Shown here: positions 1,386-29,218 of the stretch, piece after piece | Layout: the number at the start of each line of letters is the position of its first letter | How positions within the stretch are numbered: the stretch's first letter is position 1 | Origin: Chiloscyllium plagiosum | Lineage: Eukaryota | Direction of reading: 5' to 3' | NCBI RefSeq assembly: GCF_004010195.1 | Contig: NC_057752.1 | Span: forward strand, 8,549,180-8,578,397 | DNA length: 29,218 nucleotides | Translations under genes and position numbers: made by a program | The notes under the pieces: model-generated | Databases searched by the model: none | Seen by the model: only the letters and a program-made list of their open reading frames with translations | Told to the model about the DNA's origin: nothing

Positions 1386-2289
1386 CTGTCAAAAACAAAT
1401 GTGGTTATTCAGAAATGTTTCTCAGCAATAGCTGGAAAGTAAATCATCGAGTTTTGAACTTGTATTCTCGAAATAAAAGGACAGAGTCCCAACCTGAACT
1501 AAACCTCTTTGCAAGAATAGTCAGCACTAATAGCTCAGGGCCTAAATGCTGCATTCACTGTTTCGCAAGTTGTGATTCGTTGAGGCAAGATACAACTGGC
1601 CTCCTCAAAAATAAAATAAATCCGTCAAGGCTCCAAACATCCAATAACAAGTGTTGAAAACTGAACGTAGGAATCAGAGTGCTTATTAAACACGTAAATC
1701 CAAGGTCAGACTACACTGTGATCAGTTTCAGATAGACTTTCTTATTTTGTCAAATTCACAATTTAAAGTAAGGTGCTTTAATCTTACATTAGAATTCATT
1801 AGAATTCCTCAATTTGCTAATGTGTCACCTTTTCAACATATTTCAAAATTCTTGAGGATGGAAACAAAAATAAACAATCACTATTTCACTCTTCTGACAC
1901 AGACCTGGATCACTTGGAGTTACATAAATTATTCTTTCTCCAGATACAAGATGACTAATATTTCCATTTGTAAAGGATATTTATAGAAGACAAACATGGA
2001 AGGTTCACTAGAATTGCCAACATCTAAGAAAGTCTTTTGCAATTATTTCATTGAATATTTTTTTGAAAAAAAAATTGCAAATCCACTTTCAGCGTGTTCC
2101 AGATTCATTTTGAGACATTTTATCATGCTTCAGACTAAGCACTAATTACAGTCTTTGGAATTTCCTCAAATTGAGTTAATCTATACTCTCTCCACTGGCA
2201 GAGCCAAGTAACTGGCAAACTACAGAAGTCCCAAACCAGAATGACAATTAGCCTGTAATTGGTCTTGCTTTTTTAAAAAATATGTTTTC

Positions 2290-2400
2290 TACTCAACCTG
2301 TTCAGAGATGTTGTTACATAGCTCTGAAGCAGGGGGTCTTGAACCTGGGTCTCCTGGTATAGAGGCAGAGACACAAGAACTGTGGCACAAGAACTCCAGA
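2290..2400 (-). mobile_element. tRNA-derived SINE head fragment
   Basis: The minus strand has a B-box-like 'ccaggttcaagacc' and resembles the head of the SINE at 27283-27362. Confidence 0.45.
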
Positions 2401-2531
2401 ATATGCCTTATTGGGTTACTTTCCCAGGGAAGCACCTGAACAGTGACAATGCCATTTCACTGCTAACTTGGAAACTGTGCTCCAGAGCTGAAATTTAGTA
2501 AGAAGATACATCAGCTTGGACTTTCCTGTGT

Positions 2532-2910
2532 TAGAACATAGAACATTACAGCGCATACAGGCCCTTCGGTCCTCGATGTTGCGCCGACCTGTCATAACAA
2601 TCTGATGCCCATCTAACCTACACTATTCCATGTACGTCCATATGCTTGTCTAATGATAACTTAAATGTACTTAAAGTTGGCGAATCTACTACCTCTGGGT
2701 TTTGGGGAAAAAAAATTCACAAGCTATAAATGTTATCCTTCCACTGTGTGAGAAATGTGGAAGGATAACATCCTCTGACATCTGTCATATATCTATCACC
2801 CCCTTGTGCTCGCCGTCACCATACTTGGAAAAAGGCTCTCCCTGTCCACCCTATCTAACCCTCTGATTACCTTATATGTCTCTATTAAGTCACCTCTCAA
2901 CCTTCTTCTA
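2532..2910 (-). mobile_element. CR1 LINE 3' fragment
   Basis: It has the tail 'tagaacatagaaca...caggcccttcgg', and the RLRGDL end of ORF2 lies at 2880-2905. It is homologous to 8229-8600 in this window. Confidence 0.85.
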
Positions 2911-3678
2911 ACGAATAAAAGGAGGGCTAAGAGAGAGGTTGGACTCCCAACCTGCTTAGCAAAGAAAAAATTTAATTAAATGGGTCAGAAGGACAATATG
3001 AGACAGATTTGTAATTTTCCACCAAATGTAACCCTGATCCCAGCCACAAAAGTGTAGAAGGAAATAAATCAGTATTGAGGTAGTTTCTTTTGCAATGCAA
3101 AGGAACACTCGACAATAAAACATATCCTTACCCATCAGTTTGAGCCAGTTGAGGAGGTGGACATTGGCCTGAGGAAAGGTCATCTTCATCATGGCCTAAT
3201 ACAGAATTATGTGGAAAAGTTTTGCTTTGTGCAAAAATCAGGTTAATGCTAGTTAGCACCATTCTTTTACCAGAAAGAATGAGTCTTCTGCATTGACTTT
3301 GAGAAGCCTTAATCTAGTTCTTAGTGCTTTCAGATTTACAGCATGAAATGCCCAGAAATTACCACTATTTCATATAAATTAGATGTGTCACTCAAAACTC
3401 TTGCAGAATACTTTGAGAAGAAATTGAAATGACATAAGAATGTTATGGGAGCTTTTTCTGGGGTATCAGAGACATAGTAAGGTGAAGGAGTCGTACTCGT
3501 CATCAAGTTTACATGATAACCTACATAGAATGTCATGTGCCAGACTCTAAAGACATCAGCCAAGTTTCCAAAATTACAGAACTTTAATGCTGATATTTCA
3601 TATTTAAGTTACTAACTTCTTAAACTAGCTTTCCTGATATAAAGTGTTAAGACAGTAGATTAGAAAACAGTACTTCAT

Positions 3679-3897
3679 GACCAGAAATAAAATAAAGTAC
3701 TGCAGATGCTGGAAATCTGAAACAAAAGTGAAGTTGCTCAACAAACCCAGTAGGTCTGGCAGCATCTGTGGTGAGAAAGCAGAGTTAACATTTCAGGTCC
3801 AGTTCTGAAGAAGAGTTACTGGACCCGAAACGTTAACTCTGCTTTCCCCTCACAGATGCTGTCAGACCTACTGAATTTCTCCAGCAACTTCTGTTTT
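3679..3897. mobile_element. Inverted-repeat non-autonomous element (Penelope-terminus-like) carrying a hammerhead motif
   Basis: Inverted arms of about 80 bp are centred near 3810, with the direct repeat tacttcat at 3671-3678 and 3898-3905. It is the same family as 26532-26825. Confidence 0.8.
3801..3838 (+). ncRNA. Minimal hammerhead ribozyme motif
   Basis: The sequence reads agtt-CTGAAGA-a-gagttactggaccc-GAAACGTT-aact. The core boxes are present, stem I is agtt/aact, and stem II is imperfect. Confidence 0.6.
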
Positions 3898-4169
3898 TAC
3901 TTCATAAACAGACTCCAATATCCACACACAAGTGAGCAAGGTTGAACCTCACTTACTGTGTTACTGAACTTATTAACCCATTCCTGTGAAAAGGTTCATC
4001 ACATTAAAATACCAACCAAAAGCAATTTAGATGAATTGGTAACCACTGTTGCCAGAAAATCTTAAATGCTGCAAGTCTGAGAATTTTATACTGAACTTGT
4101 AACATGAACTCTTTTTCTCACTCCACAGACACTGTGAGACCCTCAGAGTTTCTCTAGCGCTTTGTTTTT

Positions 4170-5470
4170 GTTACAATATTCCAGTTATAGTCTCATTAAG
4201 ACCTTTAGCAATTGCAGAAAGACTGCTCATACTCCAAATCTTTTGTCATAAAGGCTAACACTCCATTGTTTGCCTAACTGCTTGATGTACTGATGTATTA
4301 AATTTGTACAAATCATGTCCAACAACAACCAGATCCTTCTAAATACCAATATCTCTCAGTCTTCTATCTTTTGCAAAATATTCTGTTCTTCAATTTTTCT
4401 TACCAAAGTTAACAACTTCACATTTGTATATATTACATTCCATCTGCTACACTCTTGCCCATTTACCTAACTTGCCTATTTTGTTGCAGCCGAGCTGGGA
4501 AGTGGGTTTGCTGACGGTTCATCCTCTTTCCAGTTGACATCCTCAGTGCTATGGAGCCTCCTGTGAAGTGCTGCTGTACTGCATCGGTTGGAACTTATTT
4601 GGTTTTGTTCCCACTGTTTCCGGATATTTGGTGCAGTGGTCAGTATATTGGGTCTCAATCAATGAGTTTATTGATGGGGTCCATGGATGAGTGTCATGCT
4701 TCTAGAAATTCTCTGGCTGTCCTCTGTTTGGCTTGTCCTACTATTGTTGTGTTGTCCGAGTTGATTTTGTGCTTCTTGTTGTTTGTGTGTATAGCTACTA
4801 GGGACAGCTGGTTGTGGCATTTAGTGGCTAGTTGATGTTCATGTATGTGGACTGGGACAACACAGCAATTTTAGGACAAGCCAAACAGAGGACAGCCAGA
4901 GAATTTCTAGAAGCTTGGCACTGATCCATGGACTCCATCAATAAAGACATTGACCTAGACCCAGTATACCGACCACTGCAACGAACAACCGGAACCAGCA
5001 ACTGGAAGGGCACCTGGACAGGGGACGAAATGTCTGCAAAACTGACTTCCCAGCTCAGTGAACATACCTACAACAACTGCAACCGGCACCTGAGCTACAA
5101 ATCTTCACAAAAACCTTTCTGCTTCCTTGCAGCCTCCTCACAGCTTACTTTCCCTCTATCTTCAAGTCAGCAAGAAACTTGGATATATTATATGCAGCCT
5201 CTCATCTAAGTCATTGATATTAATTGTAAATACCTTAAACCTCAGCACTGATCATTGCAGTACCACATTAGTTATAGCTGTAATTCTGAAAATGACTATT
5301 CTGTTTGTTAATGAATTGCCTCATAGTCCTAATTTTGTGTCATAACTTCTTAGTATCTTATTGAATGTTTTTTGAAAATTAAAATCACTATGTGCACTAT
5401 TTCCTTCTGATCTACTCTATTTATTATAGCCTCAATTTAGTTTAAACAGATTTATCATTTCCCTTTCATA
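4170..5470 (-). mobile_element. Old degenerate CR1 RT fragment interrupted by Penelope pieces
   Basis: 4400-4476 reads as WA..WQM.YN..KCEVV.FG on the minus strand, and the element resumes at about 5118. Confidence 0.6.
4478..5117. mobile_element. Two Penelope-like 3' fragments in inverted arrangement (minus 4478-4848, plus 4849-5117)
   Basis: The GIY-YIG C-terminal motifs (WDNT.ILGQAKQRTAREFLEAWH, SINK.IDLDP.YRPL) occur on both strands and are homologous to 28405-28899. Confidence 0.85.
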
Positions 5471-6554
5471 AATATCAAGTGTCAGTAGGGAAACATTTAG
5501 GAGACAATGATAATTGACCACAAGGTTTATGATGATGATAGAATAGGGGAATGAGCAATCCAGAGTAAGAATAATTAGTTGGGGACAGCCAACCTCAATG
5601 GGGCAACAACAGAGTTGGGCTGGATAGACTGGAACAAAAGGTTGAAACTATAGCTGAACAATGGGCTACCTTCAAAGAGGAGATGTTTCAGGTACAGTTA
5701 AAATATGTTCCCTCAAAAGGGAAAGGGAGGGCAAACAACTGTGGAGCTACTTGGATGAAAAATGAGATACAAATTAAGGAAAAAAAGTGTGCTTAATGAC
5801 AAGTATCAGGCAGAAAATAAAATTGAGAACCAAGCTGAATACAGAAGGCCCAGAAGGGAGGTGATAAAACATATTAAAGGACGAAGAGGGATTATGAGAA
5901 AAGACTGGTGGCCAAACTAAGAGGCAGTCCCAAAGTCTTCTATACGCACATAAAAGGGTGGTAAAAGGACAAAAAAAAGGAATTGACACATGGATGCTTG
6001 GGGCATTGCAGATGTTTTAAATGAATACTTTGCACCTGTTTTTACTAAGGAGTGGATACTAGGTTATGGTAGCAAAACAAAGGGCTCAAAATTGTTAAAG
6101 AGGAAGTGTTGTATACACTGTCAGTAAATACAGTTGACAAGGTAGCAGGACCAGATGAAATGAATCCAAGGATATTGAATGTAGTGAGAGTGGAAATTTC
6201 AGGAGCACTGACAATAATCTTTCCGTCTTCCCTGAGTGGCGCTAGAAGACTGGTGAATTGCAGACATTATGCTCTTGTTCAAAAAGAGAGTGTAAGGATG
6301 TGTCTAGCAATTACAGATCAGTTTAAAATCAGTATCTGGGAAGTTTCTAGAAGCAATTATTTGGGATAGAATTAATAGTCATATGGAAAAATGTGTGTTG
6401 ACTAGGAAGAACCAGCATAGATAAAGGGAAAATTGTGTTTAACTTATTTGCTGGAGTCTTTTTGAAGAGGAAACAGAAAGGGTCAATTAGGGAAATTTTG
6501 TTGATGTGGTATACATGGATTGCAGAAGGTATTTGATACATTGCCACACAACAG

Positions 6555-7247
6555 ACCACGACAAGCAGACCAAACACAGCCAGAAACCCTAACCACCTTA
6601 CCATACATCAAAGAAGTTTCAGAAATGACAGCCAGACTACTAAGACCCCTCGGAATCCTAGTAGCACACAAACCCACCAACACTCTCAAAAACTAACAAA
6701 CTTAAAAGACCCAGTACAACCCATGAACAAAACCAACGTCATGTACAAAGTTCCATGCAAAGACTGCCATAAACACTACGTAGGACAAACAGGAAGAAAG
6801 TTAGCCACCAGGATACACGAACACCAGCTAGCCACAAAAAGACACGACCCTCTCTCCCTCGTAGCCCTACACACGGATGAAAAAAACCACCATTTTGACT
6901 GGGACAACACATCTATCCTGGGACAGGCTAAGCAAAGACATGCCAGATAATTCCTAGAGGCCTGGCACTCCAACCACAACGCCATAAACAAACACATAGA
7001 TCTAGATGCCATCTATCAACTCCTCAGAAAACGAACAGGAAATGACATCACCACAAACCCCAGGAATCCCATCCAGGAGAAAGATATAAATAGAAAGCAG
7101 GAGACAACAGCTTCGCTTCACTTGGAGGTCGCCACTGATGATGTTACCTAGCCAGGTAATGAAACGTCTGGATATCAAACCTACAGCTCAGCGAGCAAAC
7201 CTACACCCTAAACCTCAACCTGAGCTACAAACCTTCACAAACCTTGC
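6555..7247 (+). mobile_element. Penelope-like element 3' part (GIY-YIG endonuclease plus terminal region)
   Basis: TLPYIKEVSEMTARLL and NVMYKVPCKDCHKHYVGQTGRKLATRIHEH match the PLE GIY-YIG motif, and a hammerhead lies in the terminal region. Confidence 0.9.
7132..7171 (+). ncRNA. Minimal hammerhead ribozyme in Penelope terminus
   Basis: The sequence reads cca-CTGATGA-t-gttacc-tagcca-ggtaat-GAAACGTC-tgg. The core is intact, stem II is 6 bp, stem I is cca/tgg, and the predicted cleavage is after GUC at 7168. Confidence 0.75.
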
Positions 7248-8643
7248 AAAAATTAAGTTTATGGATGGTATTAAACTTGGAAGAATTGTAAACTGAGGGG
7301 AGGAAGGTGCAGACCTTTAAAAAGGACATTGACAAGTTGGTGGAGAGGGCAGATAGGTAGCAGATGAAATTAATGTAAAGAAATGTGAATTGATGCACTT
7401 TGATAGAGAGAAAATTGACGGACAATATGAGGGGTATTATTCTTAAAGTGGTGTAGAAGCAGAGGAACCTAGGTGTACACGTGCATAGATCATTGAATGT
7501 GGCAGGACAAGCAGAGAAAGCAGTTAGTAGTTAATAAAAGAGAGTATTTATTTGTAGAGTATAACAGCAAAGAGGCAATGCTGAAATTATACAAGCAGTA
7601 ATTAGACTTCACTTGCAGTTTTGTGTGCAGTTCTAACCATCACACTTCAGGAAGAATATGAACAGACTGTGATAGTGTGCAGGAGCGATTTACAAGGTTC
7701 CAGGTATGAGGAACTTCAGTAATGATGAAAGATTGGAAAGTTGGGATCGTTCTCCTTGGAAAAAAGAAGGCTAACAGAAGGTCCAATAGAAGTTTTAAAA
7801 ATCATAAAAGCTGGATAGAGTAGACAGGGAGAAACTGTTTTCACTCAAAACAACTGTGTATGGGAGGGCACAGATTTCAAGTGATTTACAAAAGTAACAG
7901 ATGTGACATGGGAAAAACCACTTGTGCAGACAGGTGGTTCAGGTCTGCAATGCGTTGCCTGAAGTATGGTGGAGGCAGGTTCAGTTGAGGCATTAAAGAA
8001 GGCAATACATTATTATTTGAATTAGTGTGAAAAGGTATTAGAAAAGGAAGGAGAATGGTATGAAGTCATAACACTCTTTTGGAGAGCTGATGCAGATGTG
8101 ATATGCCAAATGGTCTCCATCTGCACCATATCACTTCTGCAATTCTGTGAAATGAGAGTCAACTCTGCCAATAACATTATGATTTAAAGTGCCTCATGTT
8201 ATATTCTAGCAGTGTCCCTAATCCTACGTAGAACATAGAACAAAAAGCACAGAACAGGCCCTTTGGCCCTCGATGTTGCACTGATCTGTGAACTAATCTA
8301 AAGCCCATCACTCTCCACTATCCCATCATCATCCATATGCTTATCCAAGGAAAGTTTAAATGCCCCTAATGTGGCTGAGTTAACTACATTGGCAGGCACG
8401 CATTTAACACTCTCTGAGTAAAGAACCTGCCTCTAACATCTGTCTTAAATCTTTCACCCCTCAATTTGCACCTATGCTCCCTCGTATAAACAGATGTCAT
8501 CACCCTAGGAAAAAGAGTCTCACTGTCCACCCTATCTAATCCTCTGATGATCTTCTATGTCTCTATTAAATCACCTCTTAGCCTTTTTCTCTCCAATGAG
8601 AACAGGCCCAAGTCCCTCAGCCTTTCTTCATAAAACTTTTGCT

Positions 8644-9411
8644 TCAGACCAGGCAACATCTCCTCTGCACCTTTTCCAATGCTTCCACATCCTTCCTGCA
8701 ATGGGGAGACCAGAACTGCACATAATACTCCAAGTGCGGCCGCACTAGCGTTTTGTACAGTTGCAGCATGACAGCATGGCTCGGGAACTCAATCCCTCTA
8801 CGAATGAAACCTAACACACCGTGTGCCTTCTTAACAGCACTATCAACCTGGGTGGCAACTTTCAGGGATCTATGTACATGGACACCAAGATGCCTCTGCA
8901 CATCCACACTACCAAGAATCTTTCCATTGACCCAGTATTCTGCCTTCCTGTTAAGCTTCCCAAAGTGAATTACCTCACATTTATCTGCATTGAACTCCAT
9001 TTGCCACCTTTCAGCCCAGTTCTGCAGTTTATCCAAGTGTCCCTGCAACCTGCAAATTTCTTCCACACTGTCCACCACTCCACTAACTTTATTATCATCT
9101 GCAAACTTACTGACCCATCCACTTATGCCTGCGTCCAAGTCGTTTATAAAAATGACAAACAGCAATGGTCCCAAAACAGATCCTTGTGGCACACCGCTCG
9201 TAACTGGACTCCAAGCTAAATATTTTCCATCAACCACCACTCGCTGCCTTCTTACAGAAAGCCAGTTTCTAATCCGAGCTGCTAAATCACCCTCAATCCC
9301 ATGCCTCCACATTTTCTCTAAAAGCCTACCATGTTGAACCTTATCAAAGGCTTTACTGAAGTCCATGTACACCACATCAACTGCTCTACCCTCATCCACA
9401 TTCCTGGTCAC
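8644..9411 (-). pseudogene. CR1 reverse transcriptase domain (open segment, 255 aa)
   Basis: The ORF track shows DFSKAFDKV, PQGSVLGP, FADD and WQMEFN.DKC. The flanking ORF2 is frameshifted. Confidence 0.9.
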
Positions 9412-11263
9412 CTTCTCAAAAACTTAATGAGGTTTGTCAGACATGACCTATCCTTGACAAATCCATGCTGACTATTTCCAATCCAACTGTTGCTTGCTAG
9501 ATGATTATAAATCCTATCTCTTATAATCCTTTCCAAAACTTTTCCTACAACAGACATTATCTCTACTGCCCTTCTTGAACAAGAGCGCAACATTTGCAAT
9601 CCTCCAGTCCTCTGGTACTAAACCTGTAGACAATGACGACTCAAAGATCAAGGCCAAAGGCTCAGCTATCTCCTTCCTAGCTTCCCAGAGAACTCTTGGA
9701 AAAATCCCATCTAGAATTGATAACACCTCTTCCTTACTAACCTCAATCCTTTCTAGTCTAATAGCCTGTATCTCAGTCTTCTCCTCTACAATATTCTCCT
9801 TTTCCTGAGTGAAAACAGGTGAGAAATATTTGTTTAACATCTCTCCAATCTCCACAGGGTCCACACACAACTTCCCACTTCTGTCTTTGACAGGCCCTAT
9901 TCCTACCCTAGTCATCCTTTTATTCCTCACATATCTATAGAAAGCTTTAAGGTTCTCCTTTATTCTACTTGCTAAAGACTGCTCATGTCCCCTCCTTGCT
10001 CTTTTTAACTCTCTCTTTAAATCCTTTCCAGCTACTCTGTAACTAGCCATCGCCTCATCTGAACCATCTTGCCTCAACATCACATAAGCCTCCCTCTTCT
10101 GCTAAACAAGAGATACAATTTCTTTAGTAAACCACGATTCCCTTACCTTATCACTTCCTCCCTGCCTGACAACATCTGTTCCTTAAATCAGCTCCACATT
10201 TCGATTGTCCCCATCCCCTGCAAAGCCACACCTCCCCCTCTTTTACCACCTTCCCTGATCTTAATGAAAGATCTAAACCATGGAATCTGCAACATCCATT
10301 CCTGATCTTGCTCTATCCATGTCTCAGAAATGACCACAACATCGAAGTCCCAGGTACTTAGATGCTGCAAGCTCATCTACCTTATTCCGGATTATCCTGG
10401 CATTGAAGTAGACACACTTCAAACCAGCTTGCTGTCTGCCAGCACATTCCTGTGACCATGAAATCCTGTCCATGCCCTCCCTACCCTCATCCTCTGTTGT
10501 ATTGGAACTACAACACAGGTTCCCAACCCCCTGCTGAGCTGGTTTAAACCCACCCAAATAGCACTAGCAAACATCCCACCCAAGATATTAGTACCCTCTG
10601 GTTCAAGTGAAGACCGTCCTGTTTGTAGAGGTCCCAACTTCGCCAGAATGAGCCCCAATTATCGATAAACCTGAAACCCTCCCTCCTGCACCATCCCTGT
10701 AGCCATGTGTTCAGCTGATATCTCTCTCTGTTCTTCACCTCGCTATCACATGGCACAGGTAACAAACCAGAGATAACAACTGTTTGTTCTAGCTCTCAGC
10801 TTCCACCCTAGCTCCCTGAAATCCTGCCTTACATCCCTATCCCTCTTTCTACCTATGTTGTTGGTACCTCTATGGACCACGACTTGGGGCTGGTCACCCT
10901 CTCTCTTCAGGACCCCAAAGACATGATCCGAGACAGCACAGACCCTGGCATCTTGGAGGCAACATACCAACCACGAGTCTCTTTCATTCCCAACAAACCT
11001 TCTATCTGACCCTCTCACTATTGAGATCCCAATGATTAACACTCTCCTTCTTTCCCTCCTTCCTTTCTGTGCAACAGGAATAGACTCTGTGCCAGAGACC
11101 TGCACCCCAATGCATGCCCCTGGTAAGTTGACCCCCCAAACAGTATCCAGAACGGTATACTTTTTTTTCAGGGGAACGACCACTGGAGATCCCTGCACTG
11201 ACTGTTTCTCCCCCCTTCTAACAGTTACCCAGCTTTCTTCGTGCTTAGGAGTAACTACTTTCT

Positions 11264-11594
11264 GGGCGGCACGGTGGCACAGTGGTTAGCACTGCTGCCT
11301 CACAGCGCCAGAGACCCGGGTTCAATTCCCGCCTCAGGCGACTAATTGTGTGGAATTTGCACGTTCTCCCCGTGTCTGCGTGGGTTTCCTCCGGGTGCTC
11401 CGGTTTCCTCCCACAGTCCAAAGATGTGCAGGTCAGGTGAAGTGGCCATGCTAAATTGCCCGTAGTGTTAGGTAAGGGGTAAATGTAGGGGTATTGGTGG
11501 GTTGCGCTTCGGCGGGGTGGTGTGGACTTGTTGGGCCGAAGGGCCTGTTTCCACACTGTAAGTAATCTAATCTAAAAGTAATCTAATCTAATCT
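11264..11594 (+). mobile_element. HE1-type V-SINE inserted in CR1 ORF1
   Basis: It has a tRNA head (A box tggcacagtgg, B box ggttcaattcc) and a V-domain 'tttgcacgttctccccgtgtctgcgtgggtttcctccgggtgctccggtttcctcccac'. The CR1-like tail 'gggccgaagggcctgtttcc' ends in (taatc)n. CpGs are retained, suggesting a young copy. Confidence 0.93.
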
Positions 11595-12109
11595 TTCCTG
11601 TAACTCTTATCTATCACAGACTCTGCATCCCGAATGATCAGAAGTTTATCCAGCTCCCACTCCAGTTCCCTAACGCAGTCTTGGAGGAGCAAGAGTTGGG
11701 TGCACTTCCTGCAGATGTACATGGGTGGGACACTAATGGCATCCCTCACCTCAAACATCATGCAGGAGGAACATTCCTCTCCCTGCACTGCCATCCCTGC
11801 GAGTCCCCTTATCATAAATTTAAAAAAAGAAGAGAAGCTTACCTGATGTGTCCCTGGTGTTTAACGTTAGAGGAGGGGGTTGGGTGGGAGGACCTCAGGT
11901 TTAGAAAACACTCACTTATATAGCTGAGGGGGAAAAAAAGTCCCTCCTTTCCCAGAAACCTCTGCTCTCTGAGGTGCTGCCACTGCTGATGTTCGAGGTA
12001 AGCTTTTAAAGTTTTAAGTCAGTGACTCACTTTTCCTGACAGGCCCCTGGTTCAAACTCCCGCTCTTCCTGCTGCTGGCAACTGAAAATCAGAACTGAAA
12101 TTCTGATGA

Positions 12110-12327
12110 AGTTAAAACTCACACAACATCAGGTTATAGGAAATACTAGCTTTTAGAGTGCTGCTCCTTCATTAGGTAGCTAATGAACCTTCATCACAGT
12201 TACCTGATGAAGGAGCAGTGCTTCGAAAGCTAGTGCTTCCAAATAAACCAGTTGGATGGTCACCTAGTATTGTGTGATTTTTAACTTTGTCCACCCAGTG
12301 CAACACTGGCATCTCCACATCATGGCC
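12110..12327. mobile_element. Second family of inverted-repeat non-autonomous element with hammerhead motif
   Basis: The arm at 12110-12177 is the reverse complement of parts of 12202-12285. The 11-bp direct repeat aattctgatga lies at 12099-12109 and 12328-12338. Confidence 0.8.
12201..12235 (+). ncRNA. Minimal hammerhead ribozyme motif
   Basis: The sequence reads tac-CTGATGA-a-ggagc-agt-gcttc-GAAAGCTA-gtg. The core is intact, stem II is 5 bp, and stem III is the palindrome AGCT. Confidence 0.7.
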
Positions 12328-12655
12328 AATTCTGATGATGTTCTAGCTGGCCAACAGTTTCTAGTTTACTCTCTTCTTTCTTGAATAACTAAGTTATGTT
12401 TGCTACCTACCAATCTGCAAGACTTTATCAAAATTCTGGGGAATTCAATGCTTTCCCCAAAAGCTCAGCCAATATTACAAAGTTGCAAAGGACCCCATAC
12501 TCGACTGCTCTGTGCCACACAACTGGACCTCCTTAGGAAAAAAAACAATCATAGCTTTAGCGTTAGAACTTTATGCGGCTGGAACATAATGCATCAAAGG
12601 ATATTTCTGAACTGCAGGCAACGTATAACATGATAAACCAAAATGATTATTTTAC

Positions 12656-13760: not shown

Positions 13761-15151
13761 TGTGCTGGGATTCCCTGAGCAATTGCTACCCCACTTGAGT
13801 GGACCGAGGCCCACTGACAATTGTGGCAAGTTTCCTGGCACTGTGTGTACACTAAACAGCATGGCGAGGCCGCAGTAATATGAGCCAGGTATCTCTGGCT
13901 GAGGGCGCAATGCACAAAACAGCAAGGCAACGCAAGACAAGGATGCTGCAGCCTTACGTAGGTTCAGAGGAAGGGCTATGACAGCGAGTGAAGAGACCTG
14001 AGAGGCAGCCTGATCTAGTCCATGTGCCGGGTACATGTCTTTGAGCACAAAATTTCCAACATTTCAATGATAGAAGGCAGTGCAGCCAAAGATGAGGTAC
14101 TAAAATGCAGAAGCATTCTCTTACTGGATCAGAGATGTGCCATAAAAGTTCGTAGATGCTGCCACATGCCCAATGCCAATGTCTGAGAATGTGGGATGTG
14201 TGTAGCCTGCTCCCATGGAGCATACCTGATGTCCAGCATGGAGATCTTCTGGAGCTAGTGGCCAGTTGAACCCACAAAGAATTCACTCTAGTTTCCATGT
14301 CAAGCTTTCCCAAAGGTTAGTTTGTTTGGCAAGTTTGGTAAGATCACAACCCATGGTGAGTTAGACTAGTAACAAGGCATTTACCAATCAATAATGGTGT
14401 CAATTTGGAATTTGCTTCCTAGGTAAAATCTCACCACATCGCTCAAGTAATATGGGGACAATAGGGTGAGAGGATCTCGACACTGAGAAGGATTCCAGCA
14501 CTCAGCTCACTGTAGCCCACATGTCTCAGAACCTTGTAAAAGTTTGCCTTTAGTCTCTTTTTCAAAGGTTAGTTTATTACGTGAATTATTATTAGTTATG
14601 GGGTTGTTTACACAGAGTGTGCCGGAGCTTCTCTAAAATCTCTCCAAGCAGGTTTGCCAAACCAGACTATATTTACTTGTCACCATAAATAATGGTTCCT
14701 CAGACTCATTTGCCAATTGTTCATACAGCATATTGGGATTCAAGTAGCAACTGAGGAATCATGGAGCAAATTAACCTACTGTGCATTATTATAACATGCT
14801 GTGCCACTGGCTTGCCGTCAGTATCTTCTGGAACATTTCTTTTACATTTCCAGAACTGGACAGTAATAGGCAAAGGCAGCATCAGTACTGGAAGGGGCCA
14901 ACTAAGCAACATTACCTAATGTTAGAGAAACACAGATCAAAATCAATCTTTAAACACTTTAACGCCATAACAAAGTACAACTGTTAATTTATATCTGATA
15001 CTTCACTTGCTCCAGGGGGATTTGGAATGGAACTAATGTACTCAGGTTTCAGTTTTCAATTAAATATCAGGACACCTGAGCACCTGCTCTCAACATCCAG
15101 TATTTAAAATGAGCACTGACAGAAACGATTTTATCAAGTTACTCAGTTCAT

Positions 15152-15705
15152 CAAAGTTTGGGAGAAGATTTCAAAAGGGCCACAACACACTGCAGCACAC
15201 CAGAACTCAAAAAGAAGAAGACCAACACCTATACAAGGTATTCGCCAAAAACAGATACCCACGCAATTTCATCAACAGATGCCTAAGAGAAAGACAACGG
15301 AACGAGGACATGCCGCAACCCAAAGGACTAGCCACACTACCATACATCAGGAGCATTTCAGAACTGACAGCCAGACTACTGCGACCACTAGGACTTATAA
15401 CAGCACACAAACCAACAGCCACCCTCAGACAACAACTCACCAGAACGAAGGACCCGATACCCAGCATGAGCAAAACTAATGTAGTGTACAAAATCCCATG
15501 CAAGGACTGCACAAAACACTACATAGGACAAACAGGAAGACAGCTAACGATCCACATCCATGAACACCAACTAGCCACGAAACGACACGACCAACTATCC
15601 CCACAGAAGCGCTTCACAGGAGGCTCCCAAGCACTGAGGATGTCACCTAGACAGGGGACAAAACGTTTGCAACAAAAATTTCCAGCTCGGCGAACAGAAC
15701 CACAA
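15152..15705 (+). mobile_element. Penelope-like fragment with internal deletion, inverted 5' piece and 13-bp TSD
   Basis: It encodes NRYPRNFINRCL, TLPYIRSISELTARLL and [20 protein letters not shown]. The TSD ttactcagttcat lies at 15139-15151 and 15706-15718. Confidence 0.92.
15631..15670 (+). ncRNA. Hammerhead motif with mutated core (GAAA>AAAA)
   Basis: The sequence reads gca-CTGAGGA-t-gtcacc-tagaca-ggggac-aAAACGTT-tgc and is a paralogue of 28789-28828. Confidence 0.5.
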
Positions 15706-17267
15706 TTACTCAGTTCATTTTGATAGCAATTTCATTTGCTTTAATTTAGAATAACACTGGCTTTGAATTGGAATTCAATACATACAGTAAACAAGCCTGG
15801 ACTTTGCAGTCGGTGGCAAAGCAGAGGCATATGCCATGAACCACATGAGAAACTACTGCCCTGCGTTTGTTGTAGGCTGCAGCAGGAACCTGCTCTCCTA
15901 TTTGCAGAGTGGATCCATTGGAGAGGTGGCTGGGAAGATTAAGTGGCGTCTTCATTCCTATGAAGCAATATTCCTCTGAAATCAAGACCTGAAATGACAC
16001 TCCTTGAGGTCTTTTCTAGTTCAATAACAGGTTTCAATAATAGTTCATTTACAGTCTTTTGGTAAACACACTCACAACATACCCCAGCTCTTCTCCAACA
16101 TCAGGAGGACTGAGGAGCCTAGGTAGAGAAGAGCTACAAGAGTTCACACTCTTAGCAACCTTCAACAAATCAATGTAAATGCTGGGGGATAAAGACAGGG
16201 CAACCAAGTTTTCACACTGACAGCTCCTGGCAGCCCATCAGCCTGGGTTCCCTGGAGTTCATTCAGGCACATTGCAACTTTTTGGGTGGTGGGGGGTGGG
16301 GGGGGGGGTTCAAGCATAAGTGGACTCCCTGGATCCTGTTTGCTGTTGTAGCCCTCAGTAGCAACAAACCTCTCAGTGTTCACAACTATTGGAACTGTTA
16401 AATCCAATCCTTTATTTTTATGTCTAGGTTGAGCCAGAGCTTCACACTCCAGGTAAAATATGAAAATGACAAAAACTAGTAATACAGCTTTGAATTAAAA
16501 GTGGGAATGTCATTTACACTTGTCACCCATACATTTGTGCTTCTTACCCACTTGAAAGAGTTTCAATTTTGAAAAGTATTCACTTGTCATATTGGAGAGC
16601 CTGTCTCAAGTTATCCTACTGTCAACCAGAACAGGAGGGATATCCAGCACATAGGACCCTTTTCTTGAATCACTCACTTCATATCCACACATAAGCTTAA
16701 TTGTCAGCAAGACTAATCTCACTGCGGATGTAAATCAGAGACCCAGCCAGGCTAAGTGCTTGCTATAGCACGCCAGTAATGTGTTTTCCAGTAAACATTG
16801 TACTTCGAAATATTTTGAAAATTATCTCTGCACTTATTGTTCTTTGTCTCCATTTGTTGCTATGGTTATCACTTAGGTTTGAATGGACCTAAAAGTTAAG
16901 TTTTTTTTTCCCCCAAACAGCCTGAACTTGGCATGCCTATGGTCCATTCAGAACATTAGGGAAAAAAAACACTTTGATTTTAGGCCATTTGGGCCAAGCG
17001 AAGACCTTTTCCAAACGATCCAAACGCAGCATGCGTACAGACCTGATTGAGTCTGTTTTCGAAAAGACCTTCAGTTTTTACGTCTTTTCAGTTTTTGGAC
17101 ATGTAGATAAAAGATATCTGACCAGTATACCCTAACTCAATATTTCTTCTTTGCACTCAGCCATACCGCTTCATATATGATCATCCAGTTGTCCCCAAAC
17201 CGAGTAACAGCGAAATACTGAAGGAGAGTTTTTGTTTTTGACTTCGAGTCAGAGTCTGCGTTCTTAC

Positions 17268-20926: not shown

Positions 20927-21251
20927 TCTCAGCCGGATCCCTCCAGCCCGGCACCGCCTTCCTGACCTGCAGTCTTCTTCTTGACCTCTCCGCCTCCATC
21001 CTACTCCGACCTATCACCCTCACCTTGACCTCTTTCCACCTATCACATTTCCAACTCCCCTCCTCCAAGTCCCTCCTCCCTACCTTTTATCTTAGCCTGC
21101 TGGACAAACTTTCCTCATTCCTGAAGAAGGGCTTATGCCCGAAACGTCGATTCTCCTGTTCCCTGGATGCTGCCTGACCTGCTGCGCCTTTCCAGCAACA
21201 CATTTCCAGCTCTGATCTCCAGCATCTGCAGACCTCACTTTCTCCTCAAAG
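20927..21251 (+). mobile_element. Penelope-like terminal segment inside L1 ORF2
   Basis: A pyrimidine-rich tract is followed by a hammerhead and 'gatgctgcctgacctgctg...tccagcatctgcag', the same tail layout as the 3679 and 26532 elements. L1 resumes at FDRVEW (21253). Confidence 0.75.
21119..21150 (+). ncRNA. Minimal hammerhead ribozyme motif
   Basis: The sequence reads tc-CTGAAGA-a-gggc-ttat-gccc-GAAACGTC-ga, with an intact core and a perfect 4-bp stem II. Confidence 0.72.
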
Positions 21252-25750: not shown

Positions 25751-26531
25751 ATGACTGTGTGTGCGCGCATATGTGTACGTGTTTGTGCATGTGTGTGTGT
25801 GCTATTATTGCGTTTGTTTTTGCTTTCTTATACACAAGTTTTGCCTGGCACTCACCATTAACTTCAATGGCATAACAACAAATGTTGACTCTGGCTGTTA
25901 TTCTTCAAAAGGCACAAATGAAAAAAAGATAGCAGTCAACAAGAATGAGTTACCACAGATCACAGCATAAAAGTTCACCTTTTAAGCCTCGAAAAACATT
26001 TCCAGAAAAAGAAAAAAAATGGGATAAACTATGAGCCACTGGTGTTGGTGTGGGTAATAGCCATTTTGAAATGTGAGAAACAACATCACAGAAGTAATTA
26101 AAATTAAGTTAATGCAACGAGTTTTATTGAATGAATTAATTCTAGAAGGATAATTTCAATCACAATCGAAATAGTTTACGGACATCACATTCATCACCTT
26201 CAGTATCTGACACAAGTAGTTTATCAAATTCATTGAGTCACTTTAGCAATGGCATCATCATAAAGATCCAACTTTGGATGAGATTTGGCACTTTCGGTTT
26301 CAGAATCATCCTGTCACGACAAAAATCATCTACCCTTCATCCATTGAATTGGATATTTCACATTTTCTGAATGATCTGATGACATTTCATACATTCGGAA
26401 GATCACACAATTGGACAATGAAACCATACAAAACATCAAGACGACAGCACATGTATTTCCACTCTTTGAGAAAATTTACTTCTCCATTAACCACCCACCT
26501 ACTCCATTCAGTACAAACATGATTCTTGAAC

Positions 26532-26825
26532 CATAAACAGAAATTGCTGGAAAATCCCAGCAGGTCCGGCAACATCTGTGGAGAGAAATCAGAGTTAACG
26601 TTTCAGGTCCAGTGACTCCTCTTCAGAACAGATTCTGATTTCCCTCCACAAATGCTGCGAGATCTGCTGAGTTTTTCCAGCAATTTCTGCTTTGGTTCCA
26701 AAGAAGAGTCATTGGACCCGAAGAGTTAGCTGATTTCTCTCCACAGATGCTGCTGGACCTGCTGAGTTTTTCCATAATCTGTTTTTGTTTCTAATTTCCA
26801 GCATCCGTAGTTCTTTCAGTTTTAG
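26532..26825. mobile_element. Hammerhead-bearing non-autonomous element: one inverted and two tandem partial units
   Basis: The 11-bp TSD gattcttgaac lies at 26521-26531 and 26826-26836. Removing the insert restores the transposase reading IKQFKNHV. Confidence 0.85.
26594..26629 (-). ncRNA. Minimal hammerhead ribozyme motif (sense to the SLC4A8 pre-mRNA)
   Basis: The minus strand reads gtt-CTGAAGA-g-gagtc-actg-gacct-GAAACGTT-aac. The core is intact and stem II has one mismatch. Confidence 0.62.
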
Positions 26826-27071
26826 GATTCTTGAACTGTTTAATGATGCACATAATCAGAGTTTAAATTGTAGAAGTTGCACCCAAATTGCAGTTACAAG
26901 AGTAGGGTCTTGTTTCTTTGCAAGTAATTCTTGATCTCATCAGCTACATGGGATCTGAACATCTACTACACCAATGAGCTGTGCTCTTTGCATAGGCCAC
27001 TGAGAAGCCTTTTCTACACATTTTGGATCGACAGCTTCACTCCAACCGCACCCCTCCAACCACTCTTATGG

Positions 27072-27967: not shown

Positions 27968-28404
27968 TAGAGTCATAGAGATGTACAGCATGGAAACAGA
28001 CCCTTCAGTCCAACCAGTCCATGCCGACCAGATATCCCAACCCAATCTAGTCCCACCTGCCAGCACTCGGCCCATATCCCTCCAAACCCTTCCTATTAAT
28101 ATACCCATCCAAATGCATCTTAAATGTTGCAATTGTACCAGCCTCCACCACATCCTCTGGCTGCTCATTCCATACATGTACCACCCTCTGCGTGAAAAAG
28201 TTGCCCCGTAGGCCTCTTTTATATCTTTTCCCTCTCACCCTAAACCTATGCCCTCCAGTTCTCGACTCCCAGGGAAAAGACTTTGTCTATTTATCCTATC
28301 CATGCCCTTCATAATTTTGTAAACCTCTATAAGATCACCCCTCAGCCTCCGACGCTCCAGGGAAAACAGCCCCAGCCTGTTCAGCCTCTCCCTATAGCTC
28401 CCTA

Positions 28405-28899
28405 TAGTGTACAAAATACCATGCAAGGACTGCACAAAACACTATATAGGACAAACAGGAAGACAGCTAACAATCCGCATACATGAACATCAACTAGCCA
28501 CGAAACGACACGACCAGCTATCCTTAGTAGCCACACACGCAGACAACAAGCAACATGAATTCGACTGGGACAACACTACTCTCATAGGGCAAGCCAGACA
28601 GAGAACAGCCAGGGAATTCCTAGAGGCATGGCATTCATCCACAAACTCCATCAACAAACACATCGACCTGGACCCAATATACCAACCACTACAGCGGACA
28701 GCTGAAACTGACAACCGGAAGCGGCAGGGACAGACCACTTTAAACACCGGAGGAAACATCAAAGAAGCGCTTCGCAGGAGGCTCCCAAGCACTGATGATG
28801 TCGCCGAACCAGGGGACGAAACGTTTGCAACAAAAACTTCCAGCTCGGCGAACAGAACCACAACAATGAGCACCCAAGCTACAAATCTTCGCACAAACT
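28405..28899 (+). mobile_element. Penelope-like GIY-YIG plus terminal fragment
   Basis: It encodes [28 protein letters not shown]...AREFLEAWHS...IDLDPIY, in an open frame. Confidence 0.92.
28789..28828 (+). ncRNA. Minimal hammerhead ribozyme in Penelope terminus
   Basis: The sequence reads gca-CTGATGA-t-gtcgcc-gaacca-ggggac-GAAACGTT-tgc, with stem I gca/tgc. Confidence 0.7.
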
Positions 28900-29158
28900 G
28901 TGTATAAATCCTGCTAAGATTTATTTCCCAAAATGCAGCACCTCGCATTTATCGGAATTAAACTCCATCTGCCACTTCTCAGCCCATTGGCCCATCTGGT
29001 CAAGATCCTGTTGTAGTCTGAGGTAACCCTCTTCGCTGTCCACAACACCTCCAATTTTGGTGTCATCTGCAAACTTACTAACTGTACCTCTTATGCTCGC
29101 ATCCAAATCATTTATTTAAATGGCAAAAAGTAGTGAACCCAGCACCGATCCTTGTGGC

Positions 29159-29218
29159 TCAGACAACAACTCACCAGAGCGAAGGACCCGATACCCGACA
29201 TGAGCAAGACGAATGTAG
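29159..29218 (+). mobile_element. Start of another Penelope-like fragment (runs off the window)
   Basis: It is near-identical to 15425-15484 (RQQLTR.KDPIP.MSKTNV). Confidence 0.85.

Follow-up and report, generated by a model that had tools for sequence, protein, structure and literature searches.

Typical insertions of Penelope-like elements (PLEs) carry, at the 5' end, a 5'-truncated copy in inverted orientation and, at one end, a tail of 30-40 bp, according to three reports (PMC8557442; PMC8969392; PMC2377424). Rotifer PLEs are described with an inverted pLTR, a 31-bp tail, target-site duplications (TSDs) of 8-10 bp and palindromes at head-to-head junctions (PMC3846280). Minimal hammerhead ribozymes lying 100-700 bp apart on opposite strands, mostly in truncated PLEs, were noted in 2014 (PMC4209133), and the same source reports that an intron of the Drosophila virilis Penelope ends at the 5' boundary of helix I. 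In another study, a purified PLE protein from a lizard was reported to cleave and extend both target strands and to start at two RNA sites that delimit the tail; the protein is predicted to be a dimer and does not require ribozyme cleavage (PMC11167929). Retrozymes are described as direct repeats in tandem that carry two or more ribozymes (PMC7229834; bioRxiv 10.64898/2026.07.22.740005).

Here we describe a short palindrome at positions 3686-3897 of a 29,218-nucleotide stretch of DNA (the window, by which we mean the whole stretch analysed). We suspect, with a probability of roughly two in three, that the palindrome consists of two 5'-truncated, head-to-head copies of one abundant hammerhead-bearing unit, produced by a single insertion by a PLE RT-endonuclease and inert since. 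It resembles the described insertions of EN-bearing PLEs in its head-to-head 5'-truncated copy, one-sided tail, TSD of variable length and short overlap at the junction (PMC3846280; PMC8557442; PMC2377424). Unlike those insertions, the copies here are only about 100-120 bp long and have no ORF, and their parent coding element was not found; the TSD is 15 bp rather than the 8-10 bp of the rotifer examples (PMC3846280). The locus is most likely a known, mostly ordinary PLE insertion pattern rather than a new mobile element. No exact description of this shark palindrome was found in the literature outside subscription papers and repeat databases.

Results

The window is vertebrate DNA that is rich in repeats, and a retroelement fragment within it has its closest relatives in carpet sharks. 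Three exons on the minus strand (17463-17263, 12745-12641 and 1388-1227) match an electroneutral sodium bicarbonate exchanger (SLC4A8-like), with 91-98% identity to Chiloscyllium plagiosum proteins. Together these matches point to a bamboo-shark-like genome. The insert lies between the second and third detected exons and is therefore intronic, the host intron on the minus strand being the interval 1389-12640 that these two exons flank. Given that the host gene is transcribed from the minus strand, its pre-mRNA carries the antisense of the ribozyme. Also in this region, 64 bases at 3134-3197 (minus strand) are flanked by acceptor-like and donor-like words; none of 7 SLC4A8 proteins matched them and they had no RNA depth.

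The preliminary description reported a flanked hairpin of about 220 bp with an 8-bp direct repeat. The hairpin is real, and its boundaries had to be corrected. The direct repeat that flanks it is 15 bp long (3671-3685 and 3898-3912, plus strand) and identical at 13 of 15 positions, of which the first 8 are exact. This duplication adjoins both boundaries of the repeat family, as established independently from contigs in which family pieces begin at 3685 and stop at 3897/3898, so the insert itself is 3686-3897, or 212 bp. An exact 8-bp repeat alone would have been weak evidence, given that in a loose scan a score of at least 8 was reached in 151 of 1500 random window pairs and one of at least 9 in 50 of 1500. 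Under a strict test, 5 of 20,000 random draws produced a 13/15 match that adjoined both boundaries, with a slack of 5 bases allowed.

The inverted arms (3724-3803 and 3818-3897) are 80 nt each, close to the length first reported, and are complementary at 67 of 80 positions (84%), with 13 mismatches and no gaps. By arm alignment and family comparison, the left arm (3724-3803, minus strand) is an inverted copy truncated at its 5' end in the loop of hammerhead helix II. The extra tail that had been noticed on this arm measures 38 bp (3686-3723, minus strand); it is a 3' extension of the repeat unit, belongs to the left copy only and aligns with the tail of the family copy at 26695-26823, and 397 contigs run past 3898 into tail sequence. 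Family contigs and alignment delimit the right copy (3800-3897, plus strand), which starts at hammerhead helix I, has no tail and is adjoined at its 5' end by the truncated inverted copy. From the ends of family contigs, the four bases CAGT at 3800-3803 can be read both as the end of the left copy and as the start of the right one. The region 3660-3915 folds at -117 kcal/mol (z -13.6; 0 of 200 shuffles were equally stable), and the minus strand folds at -124.5 kcal/mol (z -15.5). No ORF of at least 100 aa overlaps the insert, in agreement with the view that it is non-coding.

Given its size and hairpin look, the insert could be taken for a MITE mobilised by a DNA transposase. An 8-bp TSD would suggest hAT, and the first 8 bases of the flanking repeat do match exactly. 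However, the outer ends of the insert match as inverted repeats at 6 of 20 positions, i.e., there are no terminal inverted repeats. The TSD is 15 bp here and varies between loci: at three loci, all in the window and two of them of the palindrome's own family, it measures 15, 11-13 and 15 bp. In addition, the family copies are mostly monomers, and the insert carries a PLE-type ribozyme and a tail. We exclude a MITE, an origin that we find scarcely credible, on two grounds: terminal inverted repeats are lacking, and the TSD is long and varies. The proposal that the palindrome is built from inverted PLE-type ends instead of DNA-transposon TIRs holds up well, since the same outer ends and TSDs are accompanied by a minimal hammerhead of PLE type and a tail on one side.

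The hammerhead, said to lie at the centre, is present at 3801-3838 (plus strand), but not as a separate central piece. It forms the 5' end of the repeat unit in the right arm, and the left arm mirrors the 3' half of the motif. The core consists of CTGAAGA at 3805-3811 and GAAA-CG-T-T at 3827-3834, with helix I at 3801-3804/3835-3838 and helix II at 3813-3817/3822-3826, and the predicted cut falls after 3834. This core is intact and fits the published consensus. The minimal type I hammerheads described for metazoan PLEs share with it the core, one extra base after position 9, the G-C pair that closes helix II, a helix I of 4 bp and a palindromic CG, as well as solo or opposite-strand occurrence (PMC4209133). 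The CG replaces helix III, the canonical stem-loop of which is absent, so that the motif has the minimal form. Unlike the PLE consensus (PMC4209133), this copy has a mismatch in helix II, namely an A-C mismatch accompanied by a U-G pair; family depth shows mostly G at 3814 and C at 3817. A strict descriptor, composed after the motif had been seen, matched once in the window and in none of 200 shuffles. The 4 matches returned by Rfam were all under the gathering score, hammerhead families were absent among them, and the best, also below threshold, was to a plant microRNA family. No shark species was found by text search of the searchable files in the supplement of PMC4209133.

Computed folding disfavours the ribozyme by 33.5 kcal/mol within the palindrome and by 6.4-8.9 kcal/mol even when the ribozyme is folded alone. 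With such a predicted penalty on the plus strand, this copy of the ribozyme would be silent. The earlier suggestion that the hairpin would sequester the ribozyme is thus supported as a computation. At the 5' end preferred by family copies (3800-3804), CAG stands right at the start of helix I and may be a candidate splice acceptor or transcript start.

Reads and contigs of public runs were aligned to the window at 80% likeness, a threshold that pools many loci. Matching contigs numbered 26,122 of 25,783,717 in run X2 (organism A) and 34,417 of 21,316,880 in run X5 (organism B), nearly all of them on the insert. Contigs in both runs tend to break inside repeats, and the details given below come from the best-supported 15 of 279 joints, 18 of 916 loose ends and 16 of 62,441 pieces. 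In the two runs, 763 and 1119 contigs depart from the left arm at 3803, read on through the ribozyme's complement and reach the word found at 3800-3803, past which their consensus becomes low-complexity. A further 624 contigs of X5 begin at 3800, with mixed sequence upstream (agreement 0.45). From these loose ends, the unit consists of the ribozyme, about 60 bases and an optional tail; given that the contigs continue to the same word, bases 3800-3803 are common to both arms. Many family copies seem to begin at helix I, judged from the quality of the consensus rather than from counts. At 3788, 3800 and 3803, thousands of contigs exit the alignment as plain monomers, which is the form of most family copies.

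The joints are of 279 different kinds and, among the 15 listed, each is held by at most 5 contigs per run; several of these 15 combine inverted arms of other lengths with a sense arm starting at 3800-3802. Among the 16 listed pieces, 5 bridge the palindrome's own junction by at least 31 letters on each side, 3 of them without gaps, and the longest covers at most 128 of the insert's 212 bases. The recurrence of the junction in some copies has two possible sources: the 4-base complementarity may be an inherent part of the unit, or a palindrome may have been recopied. The mirror letters T3751 and A3870 are rare in the family, with another letter in 86% and 90% of X2 depth, respectively, and since both arms share these letters they have one source. 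Pattern scans for the family found 0 loci in viral contigs and 0 in prokaryote genomes; a single metagenome match was rejected as a chance match in GC-rich coding DNA.

Recopying of this kind is what would be expected if the palindrome were a non-autonomous element, retrozyme-like or SINE-like, that is transcribed and reinserted as a unit. The pieces that bridge the junction in register are compatible with this, as are the family reads on both strands of RNA run X6 (737 reads) and the derivation of animal retrozymes from PLE ends that is reported in a recent preprint (bioRxiv 10.64898/2026.07.22.740005). Non-LTR retrozymes are also short and non-coding, with a type I hammerhead, PLE-end ancestry and a long TSD (PMC7229834; bioRxiv 10.64898/2026.07.22.740005). 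However, retrozymes as described in these sources are tandem, have mostly canonical ribozymes and release circular monomers, whereas an inverted pair with one minimal ribozyme is found here. No tandem array was found at the locus (0 of 11 tandem-repeat rows), the single ribozyme is damaged and predicted to be sequestered, and a second family locus at 26519-26836 has another junction. The abundance of plain monomers, next to listed pieces of at most 128 of 212 bases, likewise speaks against spread of the whole palindrome. Both outer ends, moreover, are 3' ends of the unit, as joining de novo predicts. We therefore think it quite unlikely that the palindrome spreads as a unit, and the retrozyme-like label of the preliminary description is not supported, given one inverted ribozyme with a damaged helix II, no tandem and many junctions in the family.

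Two other short palindromic loci in the window can be compared with the one at 3686-3897. The second family locus (26519-26836) is made of three parts, an inverted copy without tail, a middle piece and a copy with a tail, set between direct repeats of 11-13 bp, and its junction differs from that of the palindrome. The middle piece starts no more than 1-2 bases from the position where the ribozyme is predicted to cut. It ends in an overlap with the beginning of the tailed copy, an arrangement that looks like a template jump; in this one case, cleaved RNA may have served as a template. The third locus (12099-12342), also palindromic, belongs to another hammerhead family; its tail is on the right and its TSD measures 15 bp (14/15). 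It has short fold-back pieces at its centre, and a ribozyme-like word at 12103 is merely part of the TSD. In all three loci, which represent two families, the outer ends are a tail-less and a tailed 3' end with the TSD abutting; the tail is on the left in one and on the right in two.

RNA reads that match the family occur in both orientations in run X6 (737 of 12,955,460 reads, about 2% of the run), but only 4 are at least 99% alike to the insert, all of them partial, and no X6 depth was found in the unique flanks next to it. Run X7 was uninformative (0 of 8,328,510 reads matched). Both runs are poly(A) single-cell reads, and they have no position where many molecules begin or end. At 3866, an A>G change is seen in 70 of 110 X6 reads in one orientation but in 3 of 81 in the opposite one, against 2-5% in DNA depth. 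A-to-I editing was considered and set aside, given that 80% likeness pools loci and a few loci dominate the reads; it is further disfavoured in that the orientation is wrong if the first mate is antisense. The signal is probably that of one expressed locus.

Discussion

In the scenario that we favour, insertion by a PLE RT-endonuclease, the enzyme would cut the target with a 15-base stagger and both 3' ends of the cut would prime reverse transcription. The left end would prime at the end of the tail and the right end 38 bases further in, possibly aided by partial pairing between the target and the RNA. The right cDNA would then extend to the usual 5' stop, hammerhead helix I, and the four bases at its end would anneal to the identical word of the left cDNA, in the helix II loop, before fill-in seals the join. 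The palindrome would be a by-product of insertion and not the mobile entity. Such priming would produce a plus strand from 3686 and a minus strand from 3897; both run antisense to the unit, and they converge.

At the end without a tail, the target is similar to what would follow in the unit, at 5 of 8 positions here (plus 2 wobble; chance 0.036), at 4 to 6 of 8 in the second locus at 26519-26836 (chance 0.14) and at 6 of 8 in the third at 12099-12342 (plus 2 wobble; chance 0.007), values that come from three loci with registers picked by eye. They hint that pairing of the target with the RNA may help priming at this end. In contrast, the lizard PLE study describes initiation without homology (PMC11167929).

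The joining of two cDNAs recalls a feature of other retroelements. In L1 twin priming, both target ends prime and the resulting inversion is joined by microhomology between TSDs, and our scenario has each of these elements. The difference is that the two L1 cDNAs copy different parts of one RNA, whereas those proposed here span one and the same stretch of 80 bases. This would call for a second RNA, a single RNA with two repeats, or strand displacement.

An alternative with the same PLE origin is self-priming, in which one nascent strand snaps back on itself through the unit's inherent 4-base complementarity (with a 14-base loop) and is copied, and the endonuclease trims one end, which leaves a one-sided tail. 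Such a mechanism was proposed for inverted junctions of PLEs (PMC3846280), and it would account for the family-rare letters shared by the arms, for the recurrence of the same junction in a few contigs and for the short fold-back pieces at the centre of the palindrome at 12099-12342. However, the strand that can fold (minus, with the complete ribozyme) starts at 3897 and does not have the tail of the copied arm, so that self-priming needs a further trimming step. Joints with many other arm lengths exist as well, and the likeness of the target to the RNA at the tail-less end points to priming there. On balance we consider self-priming unlikely.

It is conceivable, although we doubt it, that the hammerhead's palindromic helix III is a handle for RNA dimerisation, such that a dimeric RT-endonuclease holds two templates, one per target end, and the joins fall at the ribozyme for this reason. 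A two-copy cofold of the palindrome's ribozyme did not give a dimeric ribozyme fold, and the idea is thus unsupported by the folding of this degraded copy. If it were true, the short copies that begin at helix I would represent cDNAs run off to the template's true 5' end (a start or a splice acceptor), and shark genomes would hold a very large record of PLE integration intermediates in which cut geometry, the priming rule and start sites could be read.

Both insertion junctions are present in contigs of organism B (run X5; records 9 and 16) that are about 98% identical to the window, so the insertion predates the split from that organism. The empty target site was not found, and organism B also carries the insert. 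The 16% divergence of the arms suggests, by inference, that the insertion is several times older than this split.

Could the hairpin have been retained as a regulatory element of the SLC4A8-like pre-mRNA, as an editing substrate, in splicing or as a source of small RNAs? Since the host gene is read antisense to the ribozyme, its pre-mRNA would form a minus-strand hairpin (82 predicted pairs) that lacks the ribozyme, and by this fold it could be an ADAR substrate. The stability of the minus-strand fold (-124.5 kcal/mol, z -15.5) and the insert held in common with organism B are what a retained element might show. However, organism B shares the flanks as well as the insert, the arms have drifted to 84% with no sign of repair, matching the decay of the TSD (2/15), and such hairpins are common in this genome. 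A regulatory role appears very improbable to us, and the locus is better read as an insertion that has been inert since it arose.

Hairpins of this kind are prone to being misfiled, either under MITEs or under precursors of microRNAs. The size of the family permits tests of PLE integration, including priming on both strands, the origin of the tail and of the inversions, and the role of the ribozyme. The 15-bp TSD, the overlap at the junction and the likeness of the target to the RNA at the end without a tail can each be measured over thousands of copies, and how the inversion arises and why copies start at the ribozyme are testable points.

No RT-coding copy of the palindrome's family was found in the window, where the sole longer relative ends at an assembly gap. 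This relative, at 20929-21231, belongs to a sister family (67-71% identical); its minimal hammerhead is intact, and its long 5' extension reaches the N gap. It interrupts a LINE-type RT frame, and a protein search with the open frame at 20929-21174 gave 0 of 349 candidates. An older, heavily decayed family copy (about 68-70% identical) lies 170 bases downstream of the palindrome at 4072-4200, in the sense of the right arm.

The window has 6 minimal hammerheads, of which 2 (7135 and 28792) come after coding remnants that match RT proteins and, weakly, GIY-YIG-bearing ones. At 4489-5118 there is an inverted insertion of an endonuclease-coding PLE fragment, at which no convincing TSD was found. 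Its junction at 4850 is within the coding part and far from the ribozyme, and thus junctions are not always at the hammerhead; given that a coding remnant of RT/GIY-YIG type is inverted there, true PLEs in this DNA form the same kind of structure. Other 5'-truncated PLE copies with endonuclease-coding remnants are located at 6520-7250, 15067-15720, 28404-28900 and 29158-29218, and two of them have intact minimal hammerheads.
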